From: Tricharina praecox
Lineage: Eukaryota
Assembly (NCBI RefSeq): GCF_024521635.1
Contig: NW_026250418.1
Coordinates: 857,085-877,084, forward strand
DNA length: 20,000 nucleotides
Direction: 5' to 3'
Numbering within the stretch: the first letter of the stretch is position 1; each line of letters starts with the position of its first letter. Shown piece by piece: positions 5,190 through 18,854 of this stretch. Made by a program: the position numbers and the translations under genes. Below the pieces are notes generated by a model. That model saw nothing but the letters and a program-made list of their open reading frames with translations, did no database searches and was not told where the DNA came from.

Positions 5190-7469
5190 TTATCCCATGC
5201 ACCACAGTGGAGGAACGCCATTGGGCACTCTTTCCACTTTCCCCACCGTAATCACACCCTGCTTTCCAATAAAGTTGTCAACATCGGGCTCAACGAATAA
5301 GCGCACCAATTTCAAAAACCGGCAGAACCGAGTCCCTCCGTCTTCCCTCAATATCGAGACCAGTGCATGCAACCCGACCTTGCGGTCCTGATTGAGAATC
5401 ACCGCACCCCTCCCGATTTCTAGTATCGATTTATCAAACGCCTCCAAGTCCTGTGAAAGCTCATTCCACTCCACTTGATTCTTTCCGGACTTTCGTTCCA
5501 CCGGCCTCAATGACCAATGTCGCTTTCCCGGCCCCTCGGTCAGCGAAAAGTGACGATGCGGCCATGTCGGAGGAGTTATAGAGCGGAACTCCAGGACGGG
5601 GAGGTCAAGGTAAACACCGTTTTCGTCACGCAATACATCGGCGTTTTCGGCGGTTGCAATGCGGGCGCTCTGCTGAAGGAACGATTTTGGCGCTCAACGA
5701 TACCCCGCGGTTTCGAGGCGAGGCGTCGTGCCGAATATCAGGTTCCGTGGGACACGGTCGACCAACGAATAGAAGACAGCCATGCGCTCGTCGGCACTCG
5801 CGATCGCGGTGATTTTAGAGACGTCGTATCCCAACACGGAGGTCAAGCATATGGCCTCGTCTTCTTGCCGACTGGTGCGACGGTATTGGAGCACGCGCGC
5901 AAGGTATGTGAGCTTAACCGCGACATTGCCATGCAGAGGAAGCATGAGCAAAAGACTGTAGAGTGCGTTTTCCGAGTGCCAGAGACTCTTTGGGCTTCTT
6001 AAGAGGTCTTGAAAGTGGACTGGTCCGTCCGAAAATTGGATTTGCAGCTTGTCGCCGTGATTGCCATTCTTCGAGAGCACCGCTTCCTGGTACGTCCACA
6101 GCCGCCGGAACCACGCCGAGCTAAGGATACGCGTGCATTTCTCCATACGGCTTGCGAGCCGGGAGGTGGTCATCAGGCCTGTGTCGAGAACTAGGACGTG
6201 CTCTGATTCGTAGTATGTTGTGGCGAGACGGGTGATGGCCACCTTGCGGACTTCTTTCAGACTGGGAGCAACCGGGATGCACAGCGTGTCAACCCAGATA
6301 GCGAGCTTGCAAGAACTTTTCGGTCCGGAGACGGATGGGTTGAGTTCGCTAATCATTCCTTTAATCCTCGACAACTGGCAGTATGGAAGAGAATTGTTGT
6401 GGGCATTCCCCAAGCCCTGCGCCCAGGCATGCGAAAGCGCGACGTACGGACGGTCCGTGACGACTTCCAACTGGATATTTGGGTGATTATCGACTTCGTG
6501 TATGGCCACCAGCGGGATCTGGCCTTTCCTTAGAATCGAAACGACCTGCTCGACGTCCACCGAGATATGCTCACAACCTTGACAATCCTCGGTATGTTTC
6601 GTTTCGTACGTATCCTCATCAACCTGGTTCGCGTAGCATTGGACCTTTGTGCAGCTGCTATGGTCTTGTGGGGCAGACGCCGTGCTGTTGAACGTGCGCA
6701 TACGGCTGGCAATGTACAGACTCGTCGTATCCAGCAAATCGTGCAGCATAGTAGTGGCGCTGATACACCATCCGCCTTGCAACATGCGTGCTTGTAGAGG
6801 ATTCGTAGCCCGATTGAATCCAACTTTCCCGTCGTCTGCCAGTGCCGAGTCGTACAGCGGGACATGGATCGTTATCTTCGCCAGGTTGATGAGCGATTCG
6901 CCCAGCACCTGAATGCAAAGGATGGCGTCGAGCGGAAGAACGTCGGATATTCGCCACGACGTTGGCGACACCGTGTCCTCGTACCGCGAGATCATCCCAG
7001 AGACGAGCTTGAAAAGCTTTGCAAGGTCTTCGTGAGCCTTAACGCAGGACTTTATTGTTCTCTTGCCGGCATCGATGCATTGCCCGAAGTACTGCCTGGC
7101 CGGAAAGGTGGTTATGCACTGAACGGATCCTTCGGCGGGGCGCACAACGAATTCTTCCAAATCGATGGGGACTTCAAAGATTCGGAAAGCCTCGTGCAAC
7201 ATCCCGAAGAACAACCATGCCTGCAAGAAAGCAACTTTCTCTGCGGCCGACGAAGATAGCGTCTTTCCATCTCCAGAGACGCGCACCGGCCCATCATCGG
7301 TCGTGTAGTCGATCCTCCAGCCGTGCCGTGAAGGGTAGTCGAAAAAGCCTTGCTTATCGTAGTCGTTGGGCTCGCAGAGACATGGGATCTTGGGCAAAGC
7401 GTCTCCCGGTCAGTGAATGTCGGGAACGTGCCAGAGGGGGCCCAGGACATCGGGATCCTTTTGGGGCAT
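5190..7469 (-). pseudogene. HET-domain-type paralog with two in-frame TGA stops (7412-7410 and 5696-5694)
   Basis: One frame from ATG 7469 to stop 5190: MPQKD..VPDIH*PGDALPKIP..AFLQAWLFFGM..YVALSHAW..IWVDTLCIP..WFRRLWTYQEA..GYR*APKSFL..LWCMG*. Colinear with the gene at 1-2212, where the second stop corresponds to W in RWAP. Confidence 0.8.
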
Positions 7470-8593: not shown

Positions 8594-8823
8594 TGTCACA
8601 GCTCGCGGCAGAACGTTCGAGGAAGAGTGGGAACAGGGGCCGGAAGGCAGTGCGGGGGCAGTGCAAGGGGCTGCGCGGGCGGGAATGCAGGAATGAGAGG
8701 GAGGAATTGGGGCTGTGTGTTGGTAGCAGGGGTAGCGCGGCAGCGCAGGCTGTGAGCCGCTGCAGCGGGGTATCAGCGAGGGGGATTTCTCAGGGTCTGG
8801 CACATGCCCACGGTCATTGTCAT
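8594..8823 (+). mobile_element. Diverged 5' (U3) part of a family-A Gypsy LTR
   Basis: Starts TGTCACAG and aligns to the reverse complement of ~13043-13272 with many substitutions. Confidence 0.85.
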
Positions 8824-8934
8824 TATAATAAAGTACACTGGGAAAGTACTATACCACTTGACCAAAAGGTATTTTGATGGCTGAAGACCATCATCCCAGT
8901 GGCCACTTAAGGCCAGGATTTCAGAACTGTGACA
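8824..8934 (-). mobile_element. Solo LTR of the TRIM-like mini-element (older copy)
   Basis: 111 bp with 7 substitutions relative to 12350-12460. Flanks GTCAT and ATGGC do not match. Confidence 0.9.
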
Positions 8935-9374
8935 ATGGCGTTGCTTGGTCAGTCGGTCAACAAAAACACAGATGGCGTCAAACCCCTTTGAGGCCGGTAG
9001 GCGAGTGACAAAGTCGACTGAGATGTGTCGCCATGGCTTCTTAGGTACTGGGAGGGGGTGCAGGACACCATAGGGTGCGTGCCGGGTGGCCTTGGTTCGT
9101 CGGCAGGTGTGGCAGTTTCGGACAAACTGGTCAACGCCCTTTCGCATCTGTGGCCAGTAGTACCTCCGAGCAAGTGGTTCCAGGGTTTTCGTGCGCCCTG
9201 GGTGCCCCATGATCGGGTGTGCTGGTTGCTGCCAACCGGAGCTCTTCCGGTAGGTTGTCAGGTTTCAGGACTGCCTGCTGGTTGGCGAGCAGTCTTTCAT
9301 CCCCTTCTTTAGGGAGGTCTCCTGACCTCCTGGTCAGTGCATCCGGTTTTCCTCCCGCTTTGCCTGGCCGGTAG
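8935..9374 (-). pseudogene. Family-A pol fragment (RNase H end / integrase N-terminus) with internal deletion
   Basis: [29 protein letters not shown] and [27 protein letters not shown] are near-identical to the pol at ~14280-14947. The segment between EELRL and MGHPG is missing. Confidence 0.9.
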
Positions 9375-10066
9375 TGTGACACCCCGATAGGTATCAGAGG
9401 TCACCACGGTCGCAAGAGATGTGATGAGATAGTTCGGGTGATTAGAATAGAGTTGCGAGCCGGAAGGATAGTTAGAAGCGATCAAGGACAAGATAGGAAG
9501 GAGGGAGCAAACGGATTCCAGAGTCTAGACAGTGATCGGAGATGCGGCAGATCGGGATAACAGTCCAGAGGGCTTTGAGATCTCCGTTCATAGGGCCCCG
9601 CAGTAGAAACTCCGATCCAGGGAAAAACTGTTATGACGAGAGAATCGAACATCGACCGACGGGGGCAGAGAACTTCGAGCGAAGAACTCTGCCGGCGCAT
9701 GAGGGAGATAATTGCTCGGAAACTCCGATCTATCTTGGGCGCGTGGTGCTTACCACCTGCCTAGTCGAGAAGACTATCCAAAGAGAGCTGACGACGACTC
9801 GAGGCTAGGCCGCGGAACTCCGATGCAAAGGAAGCAACGGAGCTACATTAGGCCGCACTCTAGAGGAATCACCTGCTCAGGATCGGAACGACTATAAGTC
9901 GAACCGAGCGGGCAACCGAACCAAAAACCACAATCATCGCACCGAACAAACCATCGAAGAAACACCCTTAAGATTATTCCGTTGTGAATTATCGAAATCC
10001 CTGACTTTTATTCTACACTCGATATCACCATAGACTCCGACGACACAAACTCGTTCCAGTCTCACA
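9375..10066 (+). repeat. 5' LTR of family-B element (~692 bp)
   Basis: TGTGACA...TCTCACA termini. The left end coincides with the break in the family-A pol fragment. The right end is supported by related inverted copies starting at 8534 and 19341. Confidence 0.65.
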
Positions 10067-10104
10067 CTGTACTCTTAAGGTTACAGTCACCGATTTCTAA
10101 CGAA

Positions 10105-12105
10105 ATGGCCTCCTCAAACCTCGACATGCTCCGCCTCGAACTTACTCAGACCCTGAGCAATGCGCTCGTTAGCATCCCGCAAGCATCCGAAACCGTCGAA
10201 GTACGAAACCCGGCAGCCTGGCTCAGGCTGATGAACTACCAATACCAAACGGCACAAAGAGACCTGCGCCAACTTTACCAAGCATGCGATCAGAAGTTCA
10301 ACGAAGAGGACTCCCGAATGCAGGAGATCAGAAGGAACTACGAACAACTCTGCAATGGGGTCAAGTATGTGTGCAACCTCTACGCTCACAATGCCGAAAT
10401 GAATACAGAATGACTTCGAACCGAGCTGTCAACGGTAGCGAACACGACACACGCCCTGAGCAGCGACGTATGGGCAGTCATTCGAGAACGTAACCAGAAA
10501 GACGAAAACAACCGCGAGCTGCAAAGCGCCGCAAACGCTCGGCTACAAGACGCAACCGTGTTCCTCGAAACAGCGCAAGTCGAACAACGCAGGGAGCAAG
10601 CGGTGTATAACCGCAACGTGGAAATATGGGCAGGGAAACAGGAAGAGAAGGCGGAATACCTCTACAAAGAGCAACAGCGAATCAAGAAAAAAATCGCTCG
10701 AGCGGAGAAAAAATTGAAGGTTGTAGAGGTAAGGAGAGGGAAGGCGAAGGAAAAGGCCCAGAGTGGGTGAACACCACCCCAAGAGGAGGATCGAGCAGAA
10801 AGATCAGCAACAAGAGAAACTCCGGCAGGTGTAGGAATGTCCCCTCCTCCTCCACCCCCAAGACGTCCGGTGACTAACCTTGGAGGTGATCCCTCGGATG
10901 AGGAACCATCAGATGATGACGATTCCATCCCCTTGCCGCGTCGTTCGCCGCCCCGTCACCGAAACGCTCTGCTACCAAGAGAAGACGACGAAGACGAAGA
11001 GAGTCGCTTCGCTCGGATCATCGCTGCTGCCGTCTCCGCATCGAACCCGAGGGCCATCAAGCTTAAAATGACAGAGCCCGAGCCGTTCGATGGCAAGCAA
11101 AGGACAGCCTTCCGTCCATGGTGGGACTCAGTCGAAGAATATCTTGAGTTCCACCAAGAGACAAACGAGCAGCAGAAGATAGCGTGGGTGGGATCTTGAC
11201 TGGAAGGAACAGCGGCAGAATGGCATCAGGCCCGTCGAAAAAGCCTAAGGCAGCTAGACTTGGAAGATACGTGGCAGGCGTACCAAGAGGCACTCAAGGA
11301 GGCGTACCGCGACACGCAGGAGGGAGCGAACGCATTAGGAATGATGTGGGCCCTTGAATACAAAGGAGACATCTAGGCTTACATGACCTCCTTCCGATCG
11401 CTCAACATGATCGCTCGCGCCACTGGCGAACCGCTACAAGACATAGTCAACCAGGCCATGACCACCGACATTGTCGGCATGTGCTTCAACCAGCACACCG
11501 AACCCTACGAAGATGATGAGGACTTCCTGCAAATGATGCTCAGGGCTGGCAACCATGTGGAACGACGGGACGCGCTGAAAAAGGCAAGGGCAATGAGGAA
11601 AGGGGGATCGGGTAGCCAGGGTTCCGGCGGCGACCGGAAGGGACCTGGCAACGGCCGGCAGGGCCAAGGAAAGGGCAGAGACCCCGGGGGCCGCAAGGAA
11701 AGCGGGGAGTCCCCGGAGGGCCGAAAGGCCAAGGAAGCAACAGCAGTCAGGAAGGGAAGGACAAGGGAAGGGGACATCTACGCGGGAGCAAAGGAGGCTC
11801 AGGTAGGGGTTCCTCAGAAGGAGATCGATGCCCACAAAGCATCCAAATGCGACTGTTGGCGTTGCGGATGAGATGGCAACCGAACCTTCCAATGCTACGC
11901 CAGGAAAACAGTCGCGGGTACCGAACTCCCGGAGAGTCCAAAGGTGTCGTCCGTGACAAAGAGAAAACGGGACACCCAGGATGCCGAACCCACTCGACCG
12001 AGGTCCAAGCAACACAAGGCTGCGGCGGTTGTGGTGGAGGATGAAGCAATGACGGAGGCACCTCCATTCTGGGAGAGGAATGAGAGCAACCTGGAGGATT
12101 TTTGA
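10105..12105 (+). pseudogene. gag: gag of family-B element, 666 codons with five in-frame stops
   Basis: ORFs at 10105, 10558, 10837 and 11383 share one frame, with stops at 10411, 10768, 11197, 11374 and 11869. Contains PEPFDG motif and degenerate knuckle CWRCG*DGNRTFQC. Confidence 0.8.
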
Positions 12106-12349
12106 GCGGCCCCAGCACTCCGCAGACTGGACGGCCAGGTGTATATATTTGCGGAACGAAGAGACCACGGCCTCAGGATATCGACAGCGAATCCAGAGAT
12201 AAGCGAAGACGAACGGACCAACCTATTTCTACGAGTCCAACAGCGCCGAGTGCCTCAGGGTGCGAGCCCCAAAAACCAGTCAGTGGACCACGACCAATCA
12301 TAGAAATGATGCTCCTCTGGTCTGAGCAGTAGCGACGACGGATCCGGGT
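12102..12349 (+). pseudogene. pol: Family-B pol start (left part, before insertion)
   Basis: -1 frame relative to gag after GGATTTT (12096-12102). Stop at 12330, then RRRIR continuing into the DTG protease beyond the insertion. Confidence 0.65.
12345..12349 (+). repeat. Left copy of 5-bp target-site duplication CGGGT
   Basis: Identical to 18850-18854. A single copy restores the protease frame (CGG GTA CTC CTC GAC ACA GGA). Confidence 0.92.
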
Positions 12350-12613
12350 TGTAATAAAGTACACTGGGAAAGTACTATACCACTCGACCAAAAGGTATTT
12401 TGATGGCTGATGGCCATCATCCCAGTAGCTACTTAAGGCCAGGATTTCTGAACTGTGACAGTATCCCCTCTTTAGGGGCTTACTCCAGGAAGCCTTCAAG
12501 TAGTTAACCCCCAATGAGTGATAATTCATGATAAGAGTCATGAACCGTCACTCACTGTAAGCCATGCAATTCCTGAACAACGCTGCAGCAGAGGAATGTA
12601 ACTGCTCACAGTG

Positions 12614-12688
12614 GGAATTGAACTCATGACCTTTGCAGCCATCAAACTGTAATAAAGTACACTGGGAAAGTACTATACCACTCGACCA
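12614..12688 (-). promoter_or_regulatory. Putative type-2 (tRNA-like) Pol III internal promoter
   Basis: A box TGGTCGAGTGG (12688-12678) and B box GAGTTCAATTCC (12625-12614), 52 nt apart. The B box is followed by a tRNA-3'-end-like CACTGTGAGCA. Confidence 0.65.
12636..12646 (-). promoter_or_regulatory. Self-priming primer-binding site of the mini-element
   Basis: Minus-strand TTTGATGGCTG just after the 5' LTR is exactly complementary to CAGCCATCAAA inside the LTR (12707-12697). Confidence 0.75.
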
Positions 12689-12762
12689 AAAGGTATTTTG
12701 ATGGCTGATGGCCATCATCCCAGTAGCTACTTAAGGCCAGGATTTCTGAACTGTGACAGTAG

Positions 12763-13272
12763 TGTAACGGCACGGTCGGGCAAGGCTCCAGGTAGCGAAG
12801 TCGGGCTCGGAATCGGGTTCTAGGTTCGGCAGAGACAAGACAGGTTCAGAGGACAAGGTGAGGCAGGGCTCAGTGCGGACGGCAACTGAGAACAGAGGCA
12901 GGGACAAGGACTACGGCGCAGACGGCAGCCGAGGCAAGGACAGAGGTAACAGTGATTGAATTAACAAGTTGTTGCGTGAAGAACTAAGTACAGAGGGGCA
13001 ACGGCCCGTTTATATAGGAAACCCTCCACTTCTTCTCGCAACCTGACAATAACCGTGGGCGTGTGCCAGACCCTGAGAAATCCACCTTGCCAGTACCCCG
13101 CTTCCGTGACTCATACCCTGCGCAGCCGCACTACCCCTGCTTACTGCACACAGCCCCAATTCCTCCGGCTCATTCCTGCATTGCCGCCCGCGCAGCCCCT
13201 TGCACTGCCCCCGCGCTGCCTTCCCACCCCTGTTCCGACTCTTCCTCAAACGTCCCGTCGCGAGCCGTGACA
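12763..13272 (-). repeat. 3' LTR of family-A element
   Basis: Direct repeat of 18340-18849 with one difference seen (13258 T vs 18835 C). TG..CA termini. Confidence 0.95.
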
Positions 13273-16200
13273 GTAGCCCCTCCTAAGGCTCGAGTTCCCA
13301 CGAGAGCAAGTTGAACTGGTCCAGGCTTCGTTGGGTACCGTTGGTGGAAGTCGTCCACTGCCTGTACGTCCACAAGGTTCTCCTCAGGTTCCCACGTCGG
13401 TGCCGTGAAACCCCTCCACTTGACTAGGTACTGGAGTCTTCCCCTCAGCGTTCTGCTGTCCAGCACTTCCTCCACCTCCCATTCTTCTTGGTCGTTCACA
13501 ATTACCGGTAACGGTGGCGGCAGGATCTGGCCGGGGAGGGGGTCGTCGGCCGATGCATGGAGGAGGGACACTGGGAAGGTGCGGTGCTTTTGGATGGTGT
13601 TCGGGATGTCCAGTTCGTATGCGTGGGTTCCGATGGCTCGGGTAATCCGATAGGGTCCGTGGTGTTTGTTTTCCAGTTTTCGGCTTGGCCGCTCCGTCCG
13701 CCAGTTTCGGCCGTCCACCCATACCATGTCTCCAGGCTGGAAGGCCGGTGCGGGGGTTCGGTGCCGGTCCGTGTTGTCCTGCTGCCGTGCTTGGGCGTAG
13801 CGCATCTCACTTCGGGCAACGTCGTGGATCTGTTGGAGTCGCTCTACCGCTGTCTGCGCCTGTCGCTCTTCGTTCGTGTCGGTTCGGATGTCAAGCTCGA
13901 AGTTGCAACGGGGGGTGGTAGCCTAGGTTAGCAAAAAACGGGGACAGGGTAGTGGTGTCGGATGTCTGGTTGTTGCCAGCGAACTCTGCTAAGAATAGGT
14001 AGTCGACCCAGTCGTCCTGCAGGTAGCTCACGTATGCCCGGAGGTGTTGTTCCATTACCGCATTCATCCTCTCTGTTTGACCGTCTGTCTGCGGGTGGAA
14101 CGCCGTGGAGAGCCGTGCGTCGATCTTGAGGCAAGAGCATAGATGTTTCCAAAATCGTGATGCAAACTGGGGGCCCCGGTCCGATACGATGGTGTCGGGT
14201 AGTCCGTGGTATCTGAAGATCCGATCGCAGAATAGTTCGGCGAGTCCCTCGGAGGTGATGGTCGTGTTGCAGGGGAGCAGGTGTCGTTGCTTGGTGAGGC
14301 GGTCCACAAATACGCAAATGGCATCGAATCCTTTTGAGGGAGGGAGTCCGGTTACGAAGTCGACGGATATATGTTGCCAGGGTTTCTCGGGTACTGGGAG
14401 TGGGCGGAGCACACCGTAGGGGGCGTGTCTTGTTGCTTTGGTTCGTCTGCAAGTGTGGCAGTTCCTCACGAATCGGTCAACGTCCGTCCGCATCTGGGGC
14501 CAGTAGTAGTTCCGGGCCAGGAGTTCCAAGGTTTTTGCTCTTCCGGGATGGCCCATAGCCGGCGGGTCGTGGTGGTCCTGGATCAGGCGAAGTCTGAGTG
14601 GGTCGTGTTCAGGAACGTAGAGGCAATCGCGGTAATGTAATTGTCCGTTGACTTCGCTGCAGTCGGCGAGCGAGATGTCCTTTGAGTGGCGTGTTCCGTT
14701 TCTGAGCAGTTGGAGGATCTTGTTCGGCACTGGATCTGCCTGATATGCTTCGTTTATCAGGGTAGAGAGTGCGGGACGGGGTACTTCCAACGGGTTGGTT
14801 GCTGACAATCTCAATTCTTCCGGCAGGTTTTGGGGCTTGAGGACTGCTTGTTGGTTCGCCAGCAGTCTTTCATCCCCCTCCTTAGGGAGGTCTCCGGACC
14901 TTCTTGTCAATGCATCCGGTTTCCCTCCTGCTTTACCAGGTCGATAGACGATTTTGAAGTCGAAACGGGACAGGAATTCCGACCATCGTGCTTGCCGGCG
15001 GTTGAGCAACTTGGTTGACATGAAGTATTCCAGGTTCTTGTGGTCGCTCAGGACTTGGATTGGGTGCGCGGCTCCTTCAAGGTGTGGTCTCCATTCTTCA
15101 AAGGCCCGAACAATCGCCAACAATTCTTTGTCGTAGATTTCGTAATTGCATTCCGCCGGGGAGTGTTTCTTTGAATAGAAGGCAACTGGATGCAAGATTC
15201 CATCGTCGTCGTACTGGGAGAGGATACCGGCCGATACGTAATCCGAGGCATCAGTTTCCACCACTATTTCTCGGTCGTAGTCGAAATGTCGGAGGATCGG
15301 GGCGCTAGTGAAGGCAGTCTTGAGAGTGTCGAAGGCTTGCTGTTGGTCAATACCCCATTCGAAGGGGACGTACTTCCCATTTTCCTTTTTTGTCATTGCC
15401 GTCAGGGGAGATACCACCTTAGAGTAGTCCTGGATAAAGCGTCGGTAGAAGTTTGCAAAGCCCAAGAAACATTGCACATCCGTTACCGTCGTCGGTTTTT
15501 CCCATTCGAGTACGCAAGAGACTTTGGCAGGATCCATTTTAATACCCTCCGTGGTTATGATCAGGCCCAGGTATTTGACCTCCGTCTGGTGGAAGTGGCA
15601 TTTCTCCGGTTTTAAGTGCAGTCCGGCCGATGAAAGGGCGCGTAGCACTTTGGTGACCTGTTTTTGGTGTTCTTCCAGTGACGCGCTGTAGATAAAGACG
15701 TCATCTAGGAAGGCGGTACAGAAGTCGTCCAGGAACGGTCGTAAAACGTCGTTGATCAGGGCTTGGAAGTCGGCTGGCGCATTGGTTAGCCCGAAAGGCA
15801 TTACCAATGATTCGAAAAGTCCGTAGCGGGTCCGGAAAGCCGTTTTCCATTCCTCCCCTTCTGCCATTCGTACCAGGTTGTAAGCACCGCGGATATCCAG
15901 TGTTGTAAAATACTTTGCACCGGACAGTCGCATCAAGGTTTCCTGGAGCAGGGGAAGTGGGTAGCGGTTCTTGATGGTTCCTTCGTTCAGGCCTCGATAG
16001 TCCACACACAGTCGCAAGGAGCCGTCCGATTTTTTGACAAACAGGATCGGTGATGCCGCTGGTGATGAGGACGCACGGATAAATCCCTTGCTCAGATTGT
16101 CGTCAAGCCATTCCTTGAGTGCGACCAGCTCGGTTTTCGAGAGCGAATAGAGGGGTCCGTAAGGGGGCACAAATCCTTCCTTTAGTGGGATCTTGTGGTC

Positions 16201-17122
16201 GTATTGCCGATGGGGGTGGTAGGTTCTGCGCCAACCTTTCGGAGAACAGGTGGAGAAATTCGTGATATTCGGGGGGAATGTGGGCGGTTGAGCTCTGTTT
16301 TTCTTCAGATAGAACTTCATTGATCTCCCTCAGGGTCGTGGTGAAGATGGTAAGGTTCTCCTTTCCTGCCATCTGCTGGAAAGACTTCATCCGGAGGGCT
16401 GAGATTCTGACCGTGGGTTTTCTCTGATTAGCATCCTGCTGGTGTTCATTGATCTGGGGAGACGTAACGTATCGGGCCACGATGTCGCCGGCCCCCGCGC
16501 TTACCGCTGGCTCCTCCAGAGCTACGTTTGGTGCGAGAGCGTAAGGTAGTTCCGGTGGGTCTGTAGTGATACCGTGGGCTACTGTGGGTACCGTATTGCA
16601 GTGTGCAGTGCAATATTGGGAACCAAAGGTGAGGGTGCGTGAGCTGAATCGGATGGCCACGTCGTGTAGGTCCATCCAGGGAATTCCGAGTACGATTGGG
16701 TAGTGCCCCAGTTTGGTGACGAACATCGGGAGTTCTTCATGGTGCTCTTGGATTGACAGGGTGGTGGTGGCAACGTGTGTGATGTCGCCGGACTCGATGG
16801 GGCGGCCGTCGATGACCTCAAGGGCGCGCGGGGATTCAAGGGGTACAAGGGGTAGGTTGTGATGGCGGGCGAAGTCCTTGTTCACAAAGGCGATTCCGGT
16901 TGCTCCACAATCGATCAGCGCATGCGTGGCAATGGTTTTGTCACCAAACGAAAGGTTACATAGTACAACGAGATGTTTTCCTTCCATTGATGATTCCTCC
17001 ACTACCATCCCAGACACTGACAAATTGGACAAACGATAATGAGTAGAAAAGGGAGAAAAAGACTTATCCTGGGTACGACCAACAACGGTGCCATCAAGCA
17101 GTTGTTGGTCTAGGCTTTTCCC
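13170..17122 (-). CDS. pol: Pol polyprotein (protease, RT, RNase H, integrase, chromodomain), split by two +1 homopolymer frameshifts
   Basis: ALIDCGATG protease; [18 protein letters not shown] and AFLDD RT; ETDAS and YDKELLAI RNase H; GHPG..CHTC, SDRGPQF and DGQTER integrase; GPY motif; [20 protein letters not shown] chromodomain. Shifts at 16212-16216 and 13910-13915. Confidence 0.93.
13273..13286 (-). promoter_or_regulatory. Polypurine tract of family-A element
   Basis: Minus-strand TTAGGAGGGGCTAC directly before the 3' LTR. Confidence 0.8.
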
Positions 17123-18300
17123 GACTGTCCTTGGTTGTCGCCACAATTCTGGTTGCAATTGTGGTATGGGTGGTCGGGGGTCAGGGTTCCTGGTTGCTCG
17201 TGCGTCAGCTGTGCAGCTGCGGCACGGAAAGGGTTCCGATTCTTGTTCGGGCAGTGTCGGGCCATGTGGCCACTGCCTCCACAGTATAGGCAGCGACCCT
17301 CGCGGAGACGCGCAGCTCGTTCTTGATCAGAGATCTTGCGACTGTTCGCGCTGAGGTCCATAGCCCCTGGGGCTGTTCCGGTTGCAGTGGTTGCCGGTGG
17401 TGTACTGTTATGCGTTTGATTCCTCGGCGGGGCTGGGGGTTGCGGGGTGGGGTTTTGTCGCGGGGGGTTGCGGCGGCCTTCACGGAGTTGGAGGGCACGT
17501 AGCTCGGAATCGAGGCTCTGGCAGAGAGCCACGAACTGGTTGTAGGTGAGTCCCTGAGTGCGGCCCACCAGTTGTCGGTGGAGCTCGATGGAGACTCCTT
17601 CGCGGAGTGCGTCGAGTTTGGCATGCTCGTCCCAGTTCAGCTTGGACACGAGTCTTTGAAACTCCGCAAAGTAAGACGTAAAGTCCTTGTTTCCTTGCTT
17701 GAGGCGGTGAAGTTCGGCGCGTGCGGTGGCTGCTGGGTCAGGATCGCCGAAGGCGTTTTCGAGGATGGTGACCATGGCATCGGCGTCGGTCAAGCTGATC
17801 ACGTTGTTCTGGATGTACGGCAGTATCTGGGCTTGGGCACGGCCTTCGAGACGGTTGAAGGTGTAGGCCATTCTGAGTGCTGGGGACGGGAAACGGGTAG
17901 GGTCGCTGTATAGTTTGAGTCGAAGCTGGGCAACGAACCCTTCGAGCTTCTCTCGAGTGCCATCGAACATGGCTGGCTCCGGGACGCGCTCGGCGCGGCC
18001 CTGAGGTTGGGTTTCTAGTGTGGCGAGACGGTTGGCGATACGACGGGAGTTGGCAAGTTGTTCTTCGAGGTCGTCTATTCGCCAGGTGGGTGCTGCTGTG
18101 GGGGATTGGGTGATTGCACGGGCTATGATTTGGAACTGGTTATACAACCCCGACAGTGTTGCATTGTCGGCGGGTGAGTCGTGGTTAACGATGATCTCGA
18201 GTTGTTCGTAGACAGTGGCGGGAATTTCTCGACAGTAGGGAGGTGCCACCAGTACTTCCTCCTGCTGGGGAGGGTCTGGTGCTGGGGTATTGGTGGCCAT
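17110..18300 (-). CDS. gag: Gag (396 aa)
   Basis: Intact ORF starting 40 nt after the 5' LTR, PEPAMFDG, LKQG, PGAMDL motifs and zinc knuckle CLYCGGSGHMARHC. Confidence 0.95.
   Translation of the reverse strand: MATNTPAPDPPQQEEVLVAPPYCREIPATVYEQLEIIVNHDSPADNATLSGLYNQFQIIARAITQSPTAAPTWRIDDLEEQLANSRRIANRLATLETQPQGRAERVPEPAMFDGTREKLEGFVAQLRLKLYSDPTRFPSPALRMAYTFNRLEGRAQAQILPYIQNNVISLTDADAMVTILENAFGDPDPAATARAELHRLKQGNKDFTSYFAEFQRLVSKLNWDEHAKLDALREGVSIELHRQLVGRTQGLTYNQFVALCQSLDSELRALQLREGRRNPPRQNPTPQPPAPPRNQTHNSTPPATTATGTAPGAMDLSANSRKISDQERAARLREGRCLYCGGSGHMARHCPNKNRNPFRAAAAQLTHEQPGTLTPDHPYHNCNQNCGDNQGQSGKA
17116..17122 (-). promoter_or_regulatory. -1 ribosomal frameshift heptamer G GGA AAA at the gag-pol overlap
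   Basis: X XXY YYZ pattern in the gag frame just before the gag stop. The -1 frame is the protease ORF. Confidence 0.75.
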
Positions 18301-18328
18301 GGTTCTTCGCTAGGTGGAGAGATGGGCG

Positions 18329-18337
18329 ACGCAACAA
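18329..18337 (-). promoter_or_regulatory. Self-priming PBS of family-A element
   Basis: Minus TTGTTGCGT begins after a 2-nt spacer following the 5' LTR and is complementary to ACGCAACAA at 18554-18546, about 32 nt downstream of TATATAAA (18593-18586). Confidence 0.8.
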
Positions 18338-18339
18338 AG

Positions 18340-18849
18340 TGTAACGGCACGGTCGGGCAAGGCTCCAGGTAGCGAAGTCGGGCTCGGAATCGGGTTCTAG
18401 GTTCGGCAGAGACAAGACAGGTTCAGAGGACAAGGTGAGGCAGGGCTCAGTGCGGACGGCAACTGAGAACAGAGGCAGGGACAAGGACTACGGCGCAGAC
18501 GGCAGCCGAGGCAAGGACAGAGGTAACAGTGATTGAATTAACAAGTTGTTGCGTGAAGAACTAAGTACAGAGGGGCAACGGCCCGTTTATATAGGAAACC
18601 CTCCACTTCTTCTCGCAACCTGACAATAACCGTGGGCGTGTGCCAGACCCTGAGAAATCCACCTTGCCAGTACCCCGCTTCCGTGACTCATACCCTGCGC
18701 AGCCGCACTACCCCTGCTTACTGCACACAGCCCCAATTCCTCCGGCTCATTCCTGCATTGCCGCCCGCGCAGCCCCTTGCACTGCCCCCGCGCTGCCTTC
18801 CCACCCCTGTTCCGACTCTTCCTCAAACGTCCCGCCGCGAGCCGTGACA
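18340..18849 (-). repeat. 5' LTR of family-A element
   Basis: 510-bp direct repeat of 12763-13272, contains TATATAAA. Confidence 0.95.
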
Positions 18850-18854
18850 CGGGT
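18850..18854 (+). repeat. Right copy of TSD CGGGT
   Basis: Identical to 12345-12349. Confidence 0.92.

Follow-up and report, generated by a model that had tools for sequence, protein, structure and literature searches.

At 12350–12758 of a 20,000-bp stretch of DNA from the ascomycete Tricharina praecox (NCBI RefSeq assembly GCF_024521635.1, contig NW_026250418.1, positions 857,085 to 877,084 of the forward strand; the whole stretch is called the window here, and positions are counted from its first letter) lies a 409-bp unit bounded by two long terminal repeats (LTRs), and it raises the question of what kind of element this is and how it is transcribed, primed and inserted. An earlier note, made from the letters alone, had taken it for a miniature LTR retroelement that primes itself, is transcribed by RNA polymerase III (Pol III) from a split tRNA-type promoter and is a parasite of chromoviruses. 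We read this unit, called the mini element below, as a non-autonomous LTR retrotransposon of the TRIM type (terminal-repeat retrotransposon in miniature, a class reportedly described by Witte et al. in 2001), which would lie within, or parasitise, the self-priming chromoviruses of the Tf1/sushi type and would have integrated together with the full-length Ty3/gypsy chromovirus that adjoins it, which we named BIG. We give this reading a probability of roughly 0.6. The coordinates of the features are collected in Table 1.

The mini element is contained in an exact direct repeat arrangement, in which 114 nt (12350–12463 and 12648–12761) are made up of the 111-bp LTR and three further bases common to both copies (TAC on the minus strand), and the LTR termini are TGTCAC...TTACA, that is, of the TG...CA type. 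Three features named in the earlier note, identical 111-bp LTRs, a polypurine tract (PPT) and no coding capacity, are borne out: the repeat is exact, the PPT runs from 12473 to 12464, and the only open reading frame (ORF) of at least 120 aa that touches the element (12173–12541, 122 aa) has no Pfam match. Moreover, the interior's primer-binding site (PBS) and its PPT sit exactly at the LTR borders. The LTR would be divided into a U3 region of 51 nt (12758→12708) and an R-U5 region of 60 nt (12707→12648), and the interior holds a strong predicted hairpin at ~12509–12560. The unit was also considered as a short interspersed element and rejected as such; it has LTRs, a PBS and a PPT, and no tRNA, 5S or 7SL head was detected.

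The PBS is the exact reverse complement, at 11 of 11 positions, of a stretch within the element's own LTR, and it stands in the right position, so that the self-complementary PBS of the earlier note is confirmed; unlike the promoter-like motifs discussed below, an 11-nt complement at exactly the position of a PBS is not at the level of chance. This complementarity would place the 5′ end of the element RNA near 12707. In the predicted fold of the first 108 nt (−30.4 kcal/mol, z −2.64), the 11-bp duplex between the RNA 5′ end and the PBS is kept around a U5 hairpin, in which GUGGUA is paired with UAUUAC at the end of the LTR, and this predicted hairpin is presumably similar to the U5-IR stem that Tf1 and retroviruses have. 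For the RNA as a whole, from R to R (309 nt), a fold of −110.7 kcal/mol (z −4.98) is predicted, none of 100 shuffles folds as well, and primer and PBS are paired here too. Neither the primer nor the PBS holds a variant position among the LTR and interior variants listed from the contigs of public sequencing runs, and the primer is unchanged in a third LTR copy elsewhere in the window (8824–8934). Known self-priming elements are Tf1, Tf2, Tj1, Maggy, Skippy, Cft-1, Boty, grasshopper and Afut1 (PMC6934838, PMC4600332), and, judged from its sequence, the mini element appears to follow the Tf1-type self-priming design.

Part of 12250–12860 was found in 20 listed public sequencing runs from 11 studies, and the best share of its words in one run was 0.67, about as much of 12250–12860 as the 409-bp element occupies. 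The contigs of four runs (X1, X5, the soil metagenome X9 and the RNA library X16) were mapped on 12150–12950; some parts had no contig cover in some runs, for example 12366–12419 in X1 and the left flank in X5, and the contigs show neither transcript starts or ends nor strand. In X5 they match only 12349–12460 or 12647–12759, with loose ends at 12349, 12460, 12648 and 12759, and unlike sequence continues on both sides for hundreds of bases; hence these are solo LTRs, with the same boundaries as had been given before. The interior was found in all four mapped runs, in copies that are 85–99% alike: a contig of 327 nt in X5 and one of 328 nt in X1 with 1 difference each, several pieces of 190–270 nt in the soil run (~88–93% alike), and one contig of 243 nt (12422–12664, 3 differences) in the RNA library. 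A variant of the mini element without 12551–12644 (94 nt, comprising the PBS and the B-box-like region), in which only AAC stands before the LTR, occurs at low depth in X5 and X9. Because solo LTRs with exact ends are found together with a recurring interior, the mini element is a real dispersed family of the TRIM type.

Within the window the family is represented by one further, solo LTR, which has a broken integrase gene on one side and an inverted piece of a BIG-like LTR on the other; of its 7 differences, 5 fall in the 51-nt U3, 2 in the 60-nt R-U5 and 0 in the primer. The interior has only a 16-nt PPT-like match (9299–9314) in the rest of the window, and two scans of viral contigs with 22–23-nt stretches of LTR and interior gave 0 matches each. 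The contigs of 327/328 nt are the longest of X1 and X5 over 12357–12749, and their length equals the 298-bp period of LTR plus interior with ~30 nt of overlap; the assembly graph of these two runs closes on itself over the mini element, which fits many LTR-interior-LTR copies, tandem arrays or one-LTR circles.

As with the design of the mini element and its status as a family, the signals that it shares with BIG can be observed directly. Both elements have the same LTR termini, and their PPT contexts are alike at 14 or more of 18 positions (GCCTTAGGAGGGGCTAC before TGTCAC in BIG, GCCCCTAAAGAGGGGATAC before TGTCAC in the mini element). Beyond the termini no similarity was found between the two LTRs, the best local alignment being of 14 nt. 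Shared ends and PPT combined with a primer/PBS pair of its own are the pattern expected of a non-autonomous element that borrows integrase and reverse transcriptase (RT)/RNase H of the BIG type. Thus the part of the earlier proposal that made the unit a parasite of chromoviruses is probable, as a full self-priming chromovirus adjoins it with the same LTR termini and PPT and one shared target-site duplication (TSD), while the Pol III part of the proposal is not upheld.

Named relatives of BIG are annotated as Tf2/Ty3. In relatives that are 82% identical, all pol domains lie in one protein of 1232 aa, and therefore the pol of this copy is interrupted: it is split by breaks near 16103–16320 and 13805–13891, the integrase core ends at 13891, and SH3_Tf2-1 and the chromodomain are encoded apart from it by another ORF (13805→13170), which extends into the 3′ LTR. 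Near-identical though its LTRs are, this copy may not code for a full pol. A comparison of BIG pol with viral contigs (IMG/VR) gave 10 loci of 39–47% identity, and the mini element was present in 0 of the 10. Usable LTRs were found in only one of these loci, L009 (47% pol identity, 431-bp LTRs at 110–540 and 6652–7082), in which a 9-nt stretch 3 nt past the 5′ LTR has its complement within the LTR of the same element (position 234); this distant relative, too, appears to be built for self-priming. In X5 the summed contig depth was 24,000–143,000 over the R-U5 part of BIG (12763–12950), compared with ~80–210 for the mini element and 0 for the left flank. That the X5 library is of RNA is only a guess; if it is, LTRs of the BIG type are very highly represented there.

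Among the alternatives, the one that survives best, though we consider it unlikely, is that the unit is a local by-product, namely a tandem duplication with a period of 298 bp or an aberrant 3′ appendage of reverse transcription of the BIG type, and that the 111-bp repeat is the solo LTR of another autonomous element. This copy indeed has no TSD of its own and is physically attached to BIG, the order LTR-interior-LTR is formally equal to 1.37 copies of a 298-bp tandem unit, and in the soil run X9 the depth of the LTR is ~8–10 times that of the interior. However, the interior of the 4 mapped runs comes in copies that differ by up to ~10–12% and always continues into the LTR on both sides, PBS and PPT lie precisely where the LTRs begin and end, and no contig flank beside the LTR carries the PPT or PBS of a longer element, all of which argue for an element in its own right.

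The second alternative, which we hold to be improbable, concerns the polymerase: the RNA would be made by Pol III, its tRNA-type promoter being split so that the A box lies in U5 and the B box past the PBS in the interior, and the unit would be a self-priming element similar to TRIMp3. What the earlier note had seen is present in outline, as an A-box-like 11-mer in the LTR starts at +20 from 12707, and a B-box-like 11-mer with a tRNA-3′-like tail stands in the interior 65 nt further on; each of them has one mismatch and occurs at chance frequency. Order, strand and spacing of the two are right for Pol III, the B-like box is followed by 5 + 7 + 1 nt, which are spaced like T-stem, acceptor and discriminator, and from the shuffle means we estimate a joint chance of ~0.002 per element for a pair of this kind. 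Moreover, three variants of the A box fall on the consensus-degenerate positions 2, 4 and 6, one of them giving TGGCCGAGTGG, the U3 of the mini element is without an obvious RNA polymerase II (Pol II) core promoter, and TRIMs with Pol III boxes exist, namely Cassandra, Helenus and Ajax (PMC10886601).

The searches for a tRNA-type promoter point the other way. When one mismatch to the consensus TRGCNNAGTGG (A) or GGTTCRANNCC (B) was allowed, the window gave 11 matches to the A box (shuffling predicts 8.2, and the three LTR copies account for 3 of the 11) and 12 to the B box (10.6 expected); these counts are close to the shuffled expectation, and therefore the motifs by themselves are at chance frequency, and the pair was picked out post hoc from a very large scan. 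ARAGORN at default settings found 0 tRNAs in the window. At a threshold of 80% it drew a ‘tRNA-Ser’ cloverleaf at 12604–12692, with three G-U pairs and one mismatch in the acceptor stem and D and anticodon stems of 3 bp, and the relaxed search gave 22 intron-less calls in the window compared with 7–20 in ten shuffles, so that this cloverleaf is at the level of noise. In Rfam no tRNA or 5S was found in 12200–12900 at E ≤ 10, and in the window there was no match at all at gathering scores; the E-values are scaled by 4227 families, so that a very weak likeness to tRNA might escape. A tRNA origin of the interior was rejected as unsupported on these results, and the likeness to tRNA that the earlier note wished to see checked was not found by ARAGORN or Rfam.

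Conservation of the boxes tells the same story. Among the variants listed, 3 of the 10 variable LTR positions fall within the A-box 11-mer (3/11 compared with 7/100 elsewhere), which speaks against the promoter, and 1 of the 9 interior variants listed falls within the B-like 11-mer. The invariant GTGG in the 3′ half of the A box can also be explained by the predicted U5 stem, in which it pairs with the end of the LTR beside the PBS. In addition, a T4 run stands between the proposed start and the A box, and the deletion variant of two runs is without B box and PBS. Hence the split tRNA-type promoter is not borne out, and the A- and B-like motifs are most likely fortuitous, or structural as part of the U5 stem, and not a Pol III promoter; where U5 is structured, short matches to A and B boxes say little in favour of Pol III. 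If Pol III did transcribe the unit, a 5′ LTR would be active only with the interior behind it, and no transcript would come from solo or 3′ LTRs; an R region of ~20 nt might in that case be set by the T4 run at +17 to +20, and the mini element would be the first TRIMp3-type element of Ascomycota, the first in fungi to depend on a gypsy chromovirus and the first in which Pol III goes together with self-priming.

As regards the preferred reading, a TRIM-type element co-integrated with BIG, the mini element at this locus lacks a TSD that belongs to it alone and is fused to a full-length chromovirus, a circumstance that the earlier note had not remarked upon. The 5-mer ACCCG flanks only the pair, and the 5-mers around the single elements differ (ACCCG/CTACT for BIG, ACTAC/ACCCG for the mini element). 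In X1 and X9, contigs run along the left flank as far as 12346 and then read AGTACTCCT, of which 8 of 9 letters are those of the plus strand just beyond the far end of BIG (GGTACTCCT); therefore these contigs cross an empty site, in which the 5-mer stands once, in paralogues of the flanking repeat. In the restored empty site, the longest stop-free stretches across the site are of 82–184 aa, with just 4–25 aa on one side.

The joint itself is 4 nt long, of which CT also follows the 5′ LTR of BIG before its PBS, and AC precedes the 3′ LTR in both elements. Unprocessed full-length linear cDNA carries a few bases beyond CA and TG, which are trimmed by integrase, and this is the logic of the junction in 2-LTR circles. 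On its sequence the joint looks like such a ‘circle junction’ between heterologous LTRs: as in the retroviral 2-LTR circle, a U5 end and a U3 start stand head to tail with extra bases between them (here CT + AC), whereas the ends here come from two elements and are integrated in the chromosome with an outer 5-bp duplication. We put it at about even odds that ligation, or template switching from end to end, joined the end of a BIG cDNA to that of a mini cDNA and that the two were integrated as a dimer. Within each LTR pair the copies are near-identical (111/111 and 509/510), in agreement with a single recent event.

It is very improbable that BIG and the mini element were inserted independently, either twice into the same target site or one at the edge of the other. 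Double insertion is a described route to tandem transposable elements, but it keeps a copy of the target site in the joint (PMC5932611), which here reads CTAC and not ACCCG, and no matching pair of 5-mers surrounds BIG alone or the mini element alone. An assembly artefact, by collapse of repeats or a mis-join, as the source of the adjacency or of the perfect LTR identity is barely credible, for although none of the mapped runs bridges the BIG/mini joint with a long piece and no run holds all words of 12250–12860 (best share 0.67), a mis-join would not yield a joint formed exactly as expected of two complete LTR ends together with outer ends that carry a matching 5-bp duplication and have independent support from the empty site.

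Several observations weigh against a self-priming TRIM that was co-integrated with BIG. The 51-nt U3 of the mini element is without a clear TATA box, having only TTAAGTA at ~−27, so that a Pol II promoter is not evident, and it is complementarity by itself that places the RNA 5′ end at ~12707. Dispersed copies, as foreseen in the earlier note, were found in the run contigs and in the third LTR, but the 5-bp TSDs foreseen with them were not: a second full copy with its own duplication was not retrieved from the run contigs or from a metagenome scan, and the sole hint of a TSD in the family is one solo LTR in X5, of which the left flank ends in AGCCT and the right-flank consensus (two contigs) begins with AGCCG. 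A metagenome scan with the primer...PBS pattern gave 8 stretches, all of them chance inverted repeats and none of them (0/8) a relative. The 4-nt joint can also be split in other ways (C + TAC, or CTAC from the BIG PPT), and this copy of BIG, given its split pol, may not itself be an active helper.

For the ends of the RNA, its priming, the helper and the polymerase, we infer the following course. The RNA would begin at ~12707 in the 5′ LTR and end at the corresponding point of the 3′ LTR, and its first 11 nt would fold back onto the PBS just past the LTR. RNase H of the helper would then cleave, and the freed 5′ segment would prime minus-strand synthesis, in analogy to Tf1/Tj1 (PMC4600332), after which the PPT would prime the plus strand. 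The helper, BIG or a close relative, would supply an integrase that recognises the common TGTCAC...TTACA ends. At this locus the cDNAs of BIG and the mini element would have been joined end to end, CT coming from the unprocessed U5 end of BIG and AC from the unprocessed U3 end of the mini element, and the 6.5-kb dimer would have been integrated via its outer ends, giving one 5-bp duplication.

The definition of TRIMs is restated in PMC10886601 and PMC6934838, and the mini element agrees with it in its size below 1 kb, in short terminal direct repeats (111 bp here), in a noncoding interior between PBS and PPT, in dispersed copies and solo LTRs, and in the presumed dependence on an autonomous LTR element. 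It differs in that its PBS is complementary to its own LTR and not to a tRNA, and in that this copy is without its own TSD and is fused to a full-length element. No self-primed TRIM was found among the papers listed by a literature search on self-priming and on non-autonomous TRIMs, a search to which Repbase and Dfam did not belong, so that an entry for the family may exist there. With the Tf1/sushi chromoviruses the mini element shares a U5 hairpin, predicted within the duplex, and the 5-bp duplication, and the neighbour BIG has the chromodomain and SH3_Tf2-1; unlike these elements the mini element encodes nothing, its LTR is of 111 bp and its U3 of 51 nt, and priming and RNase H cleavage are predicted here.

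The closest published kind is Helenus/TRIMp3, of which the defining feature is not found in the mini element. TRIMp3 comprises Helenus (tRNA), Ajax (5S) and Cassandra (5S), with Pol III boxes derived from small RNAs (Kojima 2024, PMC10886601), and the novelty that the earlier note had seen in tRNA-type Pol III boxes in a fungal TRIM must accordingly be amended, as Helenus is already described in that paper. Fungal Helenus elements are given there for Pucciniales and a few Agaricomycetes and are thought to depend on Copia. Like the mini element, Helenus is a small non-autonomous LTR element of fungi with tRNA-promoter-like motifs, a PBS and a PPT, and it has 5-bp duplications and a proposed Pol III transcription (PMC10886601). 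However, its tRNA-derived sequence with both boxes lies inside the LTR, and its primer is a tRNA, at the 3′ end or the anticodon loop (PMC10886601), whereas the mini LTR has only the A-like box with one mismatch, the B-like box lies outside, no tRNA is detectable, the primer is the element itself, and it has a gypsy chromovirus as partner and an ascomycete as host. The LTR motif used for Helenus, TRGCY...YGG with GGTTC, is represented in the mini LTR only by TGGTC...TGG, and AGTTC stands in the interior. Because it is without tRNA-derived sequence in the LTR, the mini element was not filed under Helenus/TRIMp3. Cassandra corresponds to the earlier model in being a TRIM for which Pol III transcription has been proposed or shown (PMC10886601); Cassandra and Ajax differ from the mini element in having 5S-derived sequence in the LTR, and in the Rfam searches given above (12200–12900 at E ≤ 10, the window at gathering scores) no 5S match was present.

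The TRIMs known are mainly tRNA-primed elements, and it is not clear what keeps them matched to a helper. The mini element would offer a case in which the LTR ends and the PPT of the helper lineage are copied and a cis-acting self-primer/PBS pair of its own is kept, and it suggests that a self-priming lineage can spawn a minimal parasite of ~300 transcribed bases. LTR ends, an 11-nt primer and PBS, a U5 hairpin and a PPT are likely to be sufficient cis signals. If the BIG::mini dimer is true, it is a genomic fossil of a state in which both cDNAs coexisted and one integrase handled both, that is, rare direct evidence of the pairing of a helper with its parasite, and it would show a route to tandem heterologous LTR elements without recombination between LTRs or double insertion.

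Table 1. Position, strand and description of the features of the mini element, of BIG and of their joint (window positions)
Feature	Position	Strand	Description
Mini element	12350–12758	minus	409 bp, order LTR-interior-LTR
Mini 5′ LTR	12648–12758	minus	111 bp, TGTCACAG...TTATTACA
Mini 3′ LTR	12350–12460	minus	111 bp, 111/111 identical to 5′ LTR
Mini interior	12461–12647	minus	187 bp, noncoding
Mini PPT	12464–12473	minus	AAAGAGGGGA, then TAC, then 3′ LTR
Mini PBS, self type	12636–12646	minus	TTTGATGGCTG, 1 nt past LTR end (2 nt if taken as a 10-mer), base between is G
Putative RNA 5′ end and self-primer	12697–12707	minus	CAGCCATCAAA, 11/11 complementary to PBS
A-box-like 11-mer	12678–12688 and 12380–12390	minus	TGGTCGAGTGG, 1 mismatch to consensus
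B-box-like 11-mer	12614–12624	minus	AGTTCAATTCC, 1 mismatch; tRNA-3′-like stretch follows down to 12603
Third mini LTR, solo	8824–8934	minus	104/111 identical
BIG/mini joint	12759–12762	minus	CTAC, 4 nt between BIG 3′ LTR and mini 5′ LTR
TSD, upstream copy	18850–18854	minus	ACCCG, outside BIG 5′ LTR
TSD, downstream copy	12345–12349	minus	ACCCG, outside mini 3′ LTR
BIG, whole element	12763–18849	minus	6.1 kb, Ty3/gypsy chromovirus
BIG 3′ LTR	12763–13272	minus	510 bp, 509/510 identical to 18340–18849
BIG 5′ LTR	18340–18849	minus	510 bp; TATATAAA (TATA box) at 18593→18586
BIG internal region	13273–18339	minus	gag, protease, RT, RNase H, integrase, SH3_Tf2-1, chromodomain (Pfam)
BIG PBS, self type	18337→18329	minus	TTGTTGCGT, two bases past 5′ LTR
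BIG LTR primer stretch	18554→18546	minus	ACGCAACAA, complementary to TTGTTGCGT, 31 nt downstream of TATATAAA
BIG PPT	13284→13277	minus	AGGAGGGG

The surroundings of the pair hold further remains of the same kind. A nest of fragments at 8594–9374 contains an older BIG-like pol piece, 77–82% identical to 14282–14947, in which the integrase is cut past the zinc-finger at ...VDRLTKQRH, and the solo mini LTR then follows; beside that LTR lies an inverted piece of a BIG-like LTR (229 bp, 8594–8822, 87%). The solo LTR has unrelated flanks without a duplication, which is what recombination between copies of the LTR should leave behind. At 9299–9314 on the minus strand, within the old pol fragment, stands the PPT-like CCCTAAAGAAGGGGA, which resembles the PPT context of the mini element at 15 of 16 positions and may serve this lineage of chromoviruses as an internal (central) polypurine tract. 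The region 10000–12000 shows a strong strand asymmetry (AT skew ~0.35) and short, purine-rich imperfect repeats, for example at 11653–11736; it is part of the older repeat that hosts the BIG::mini insertion and is multi-copy in X1 and X9. Farther away, two ORFs match the HET (heterokaryon incompatibility) domain, a sign of a filamentous ascomycete as host; one lies at 5694–7397 on the minus strand (E 8e-8), and the other, with a weak match, at 851–2212 on the plus strand (E 0.0017, below the Pfam cut-off).

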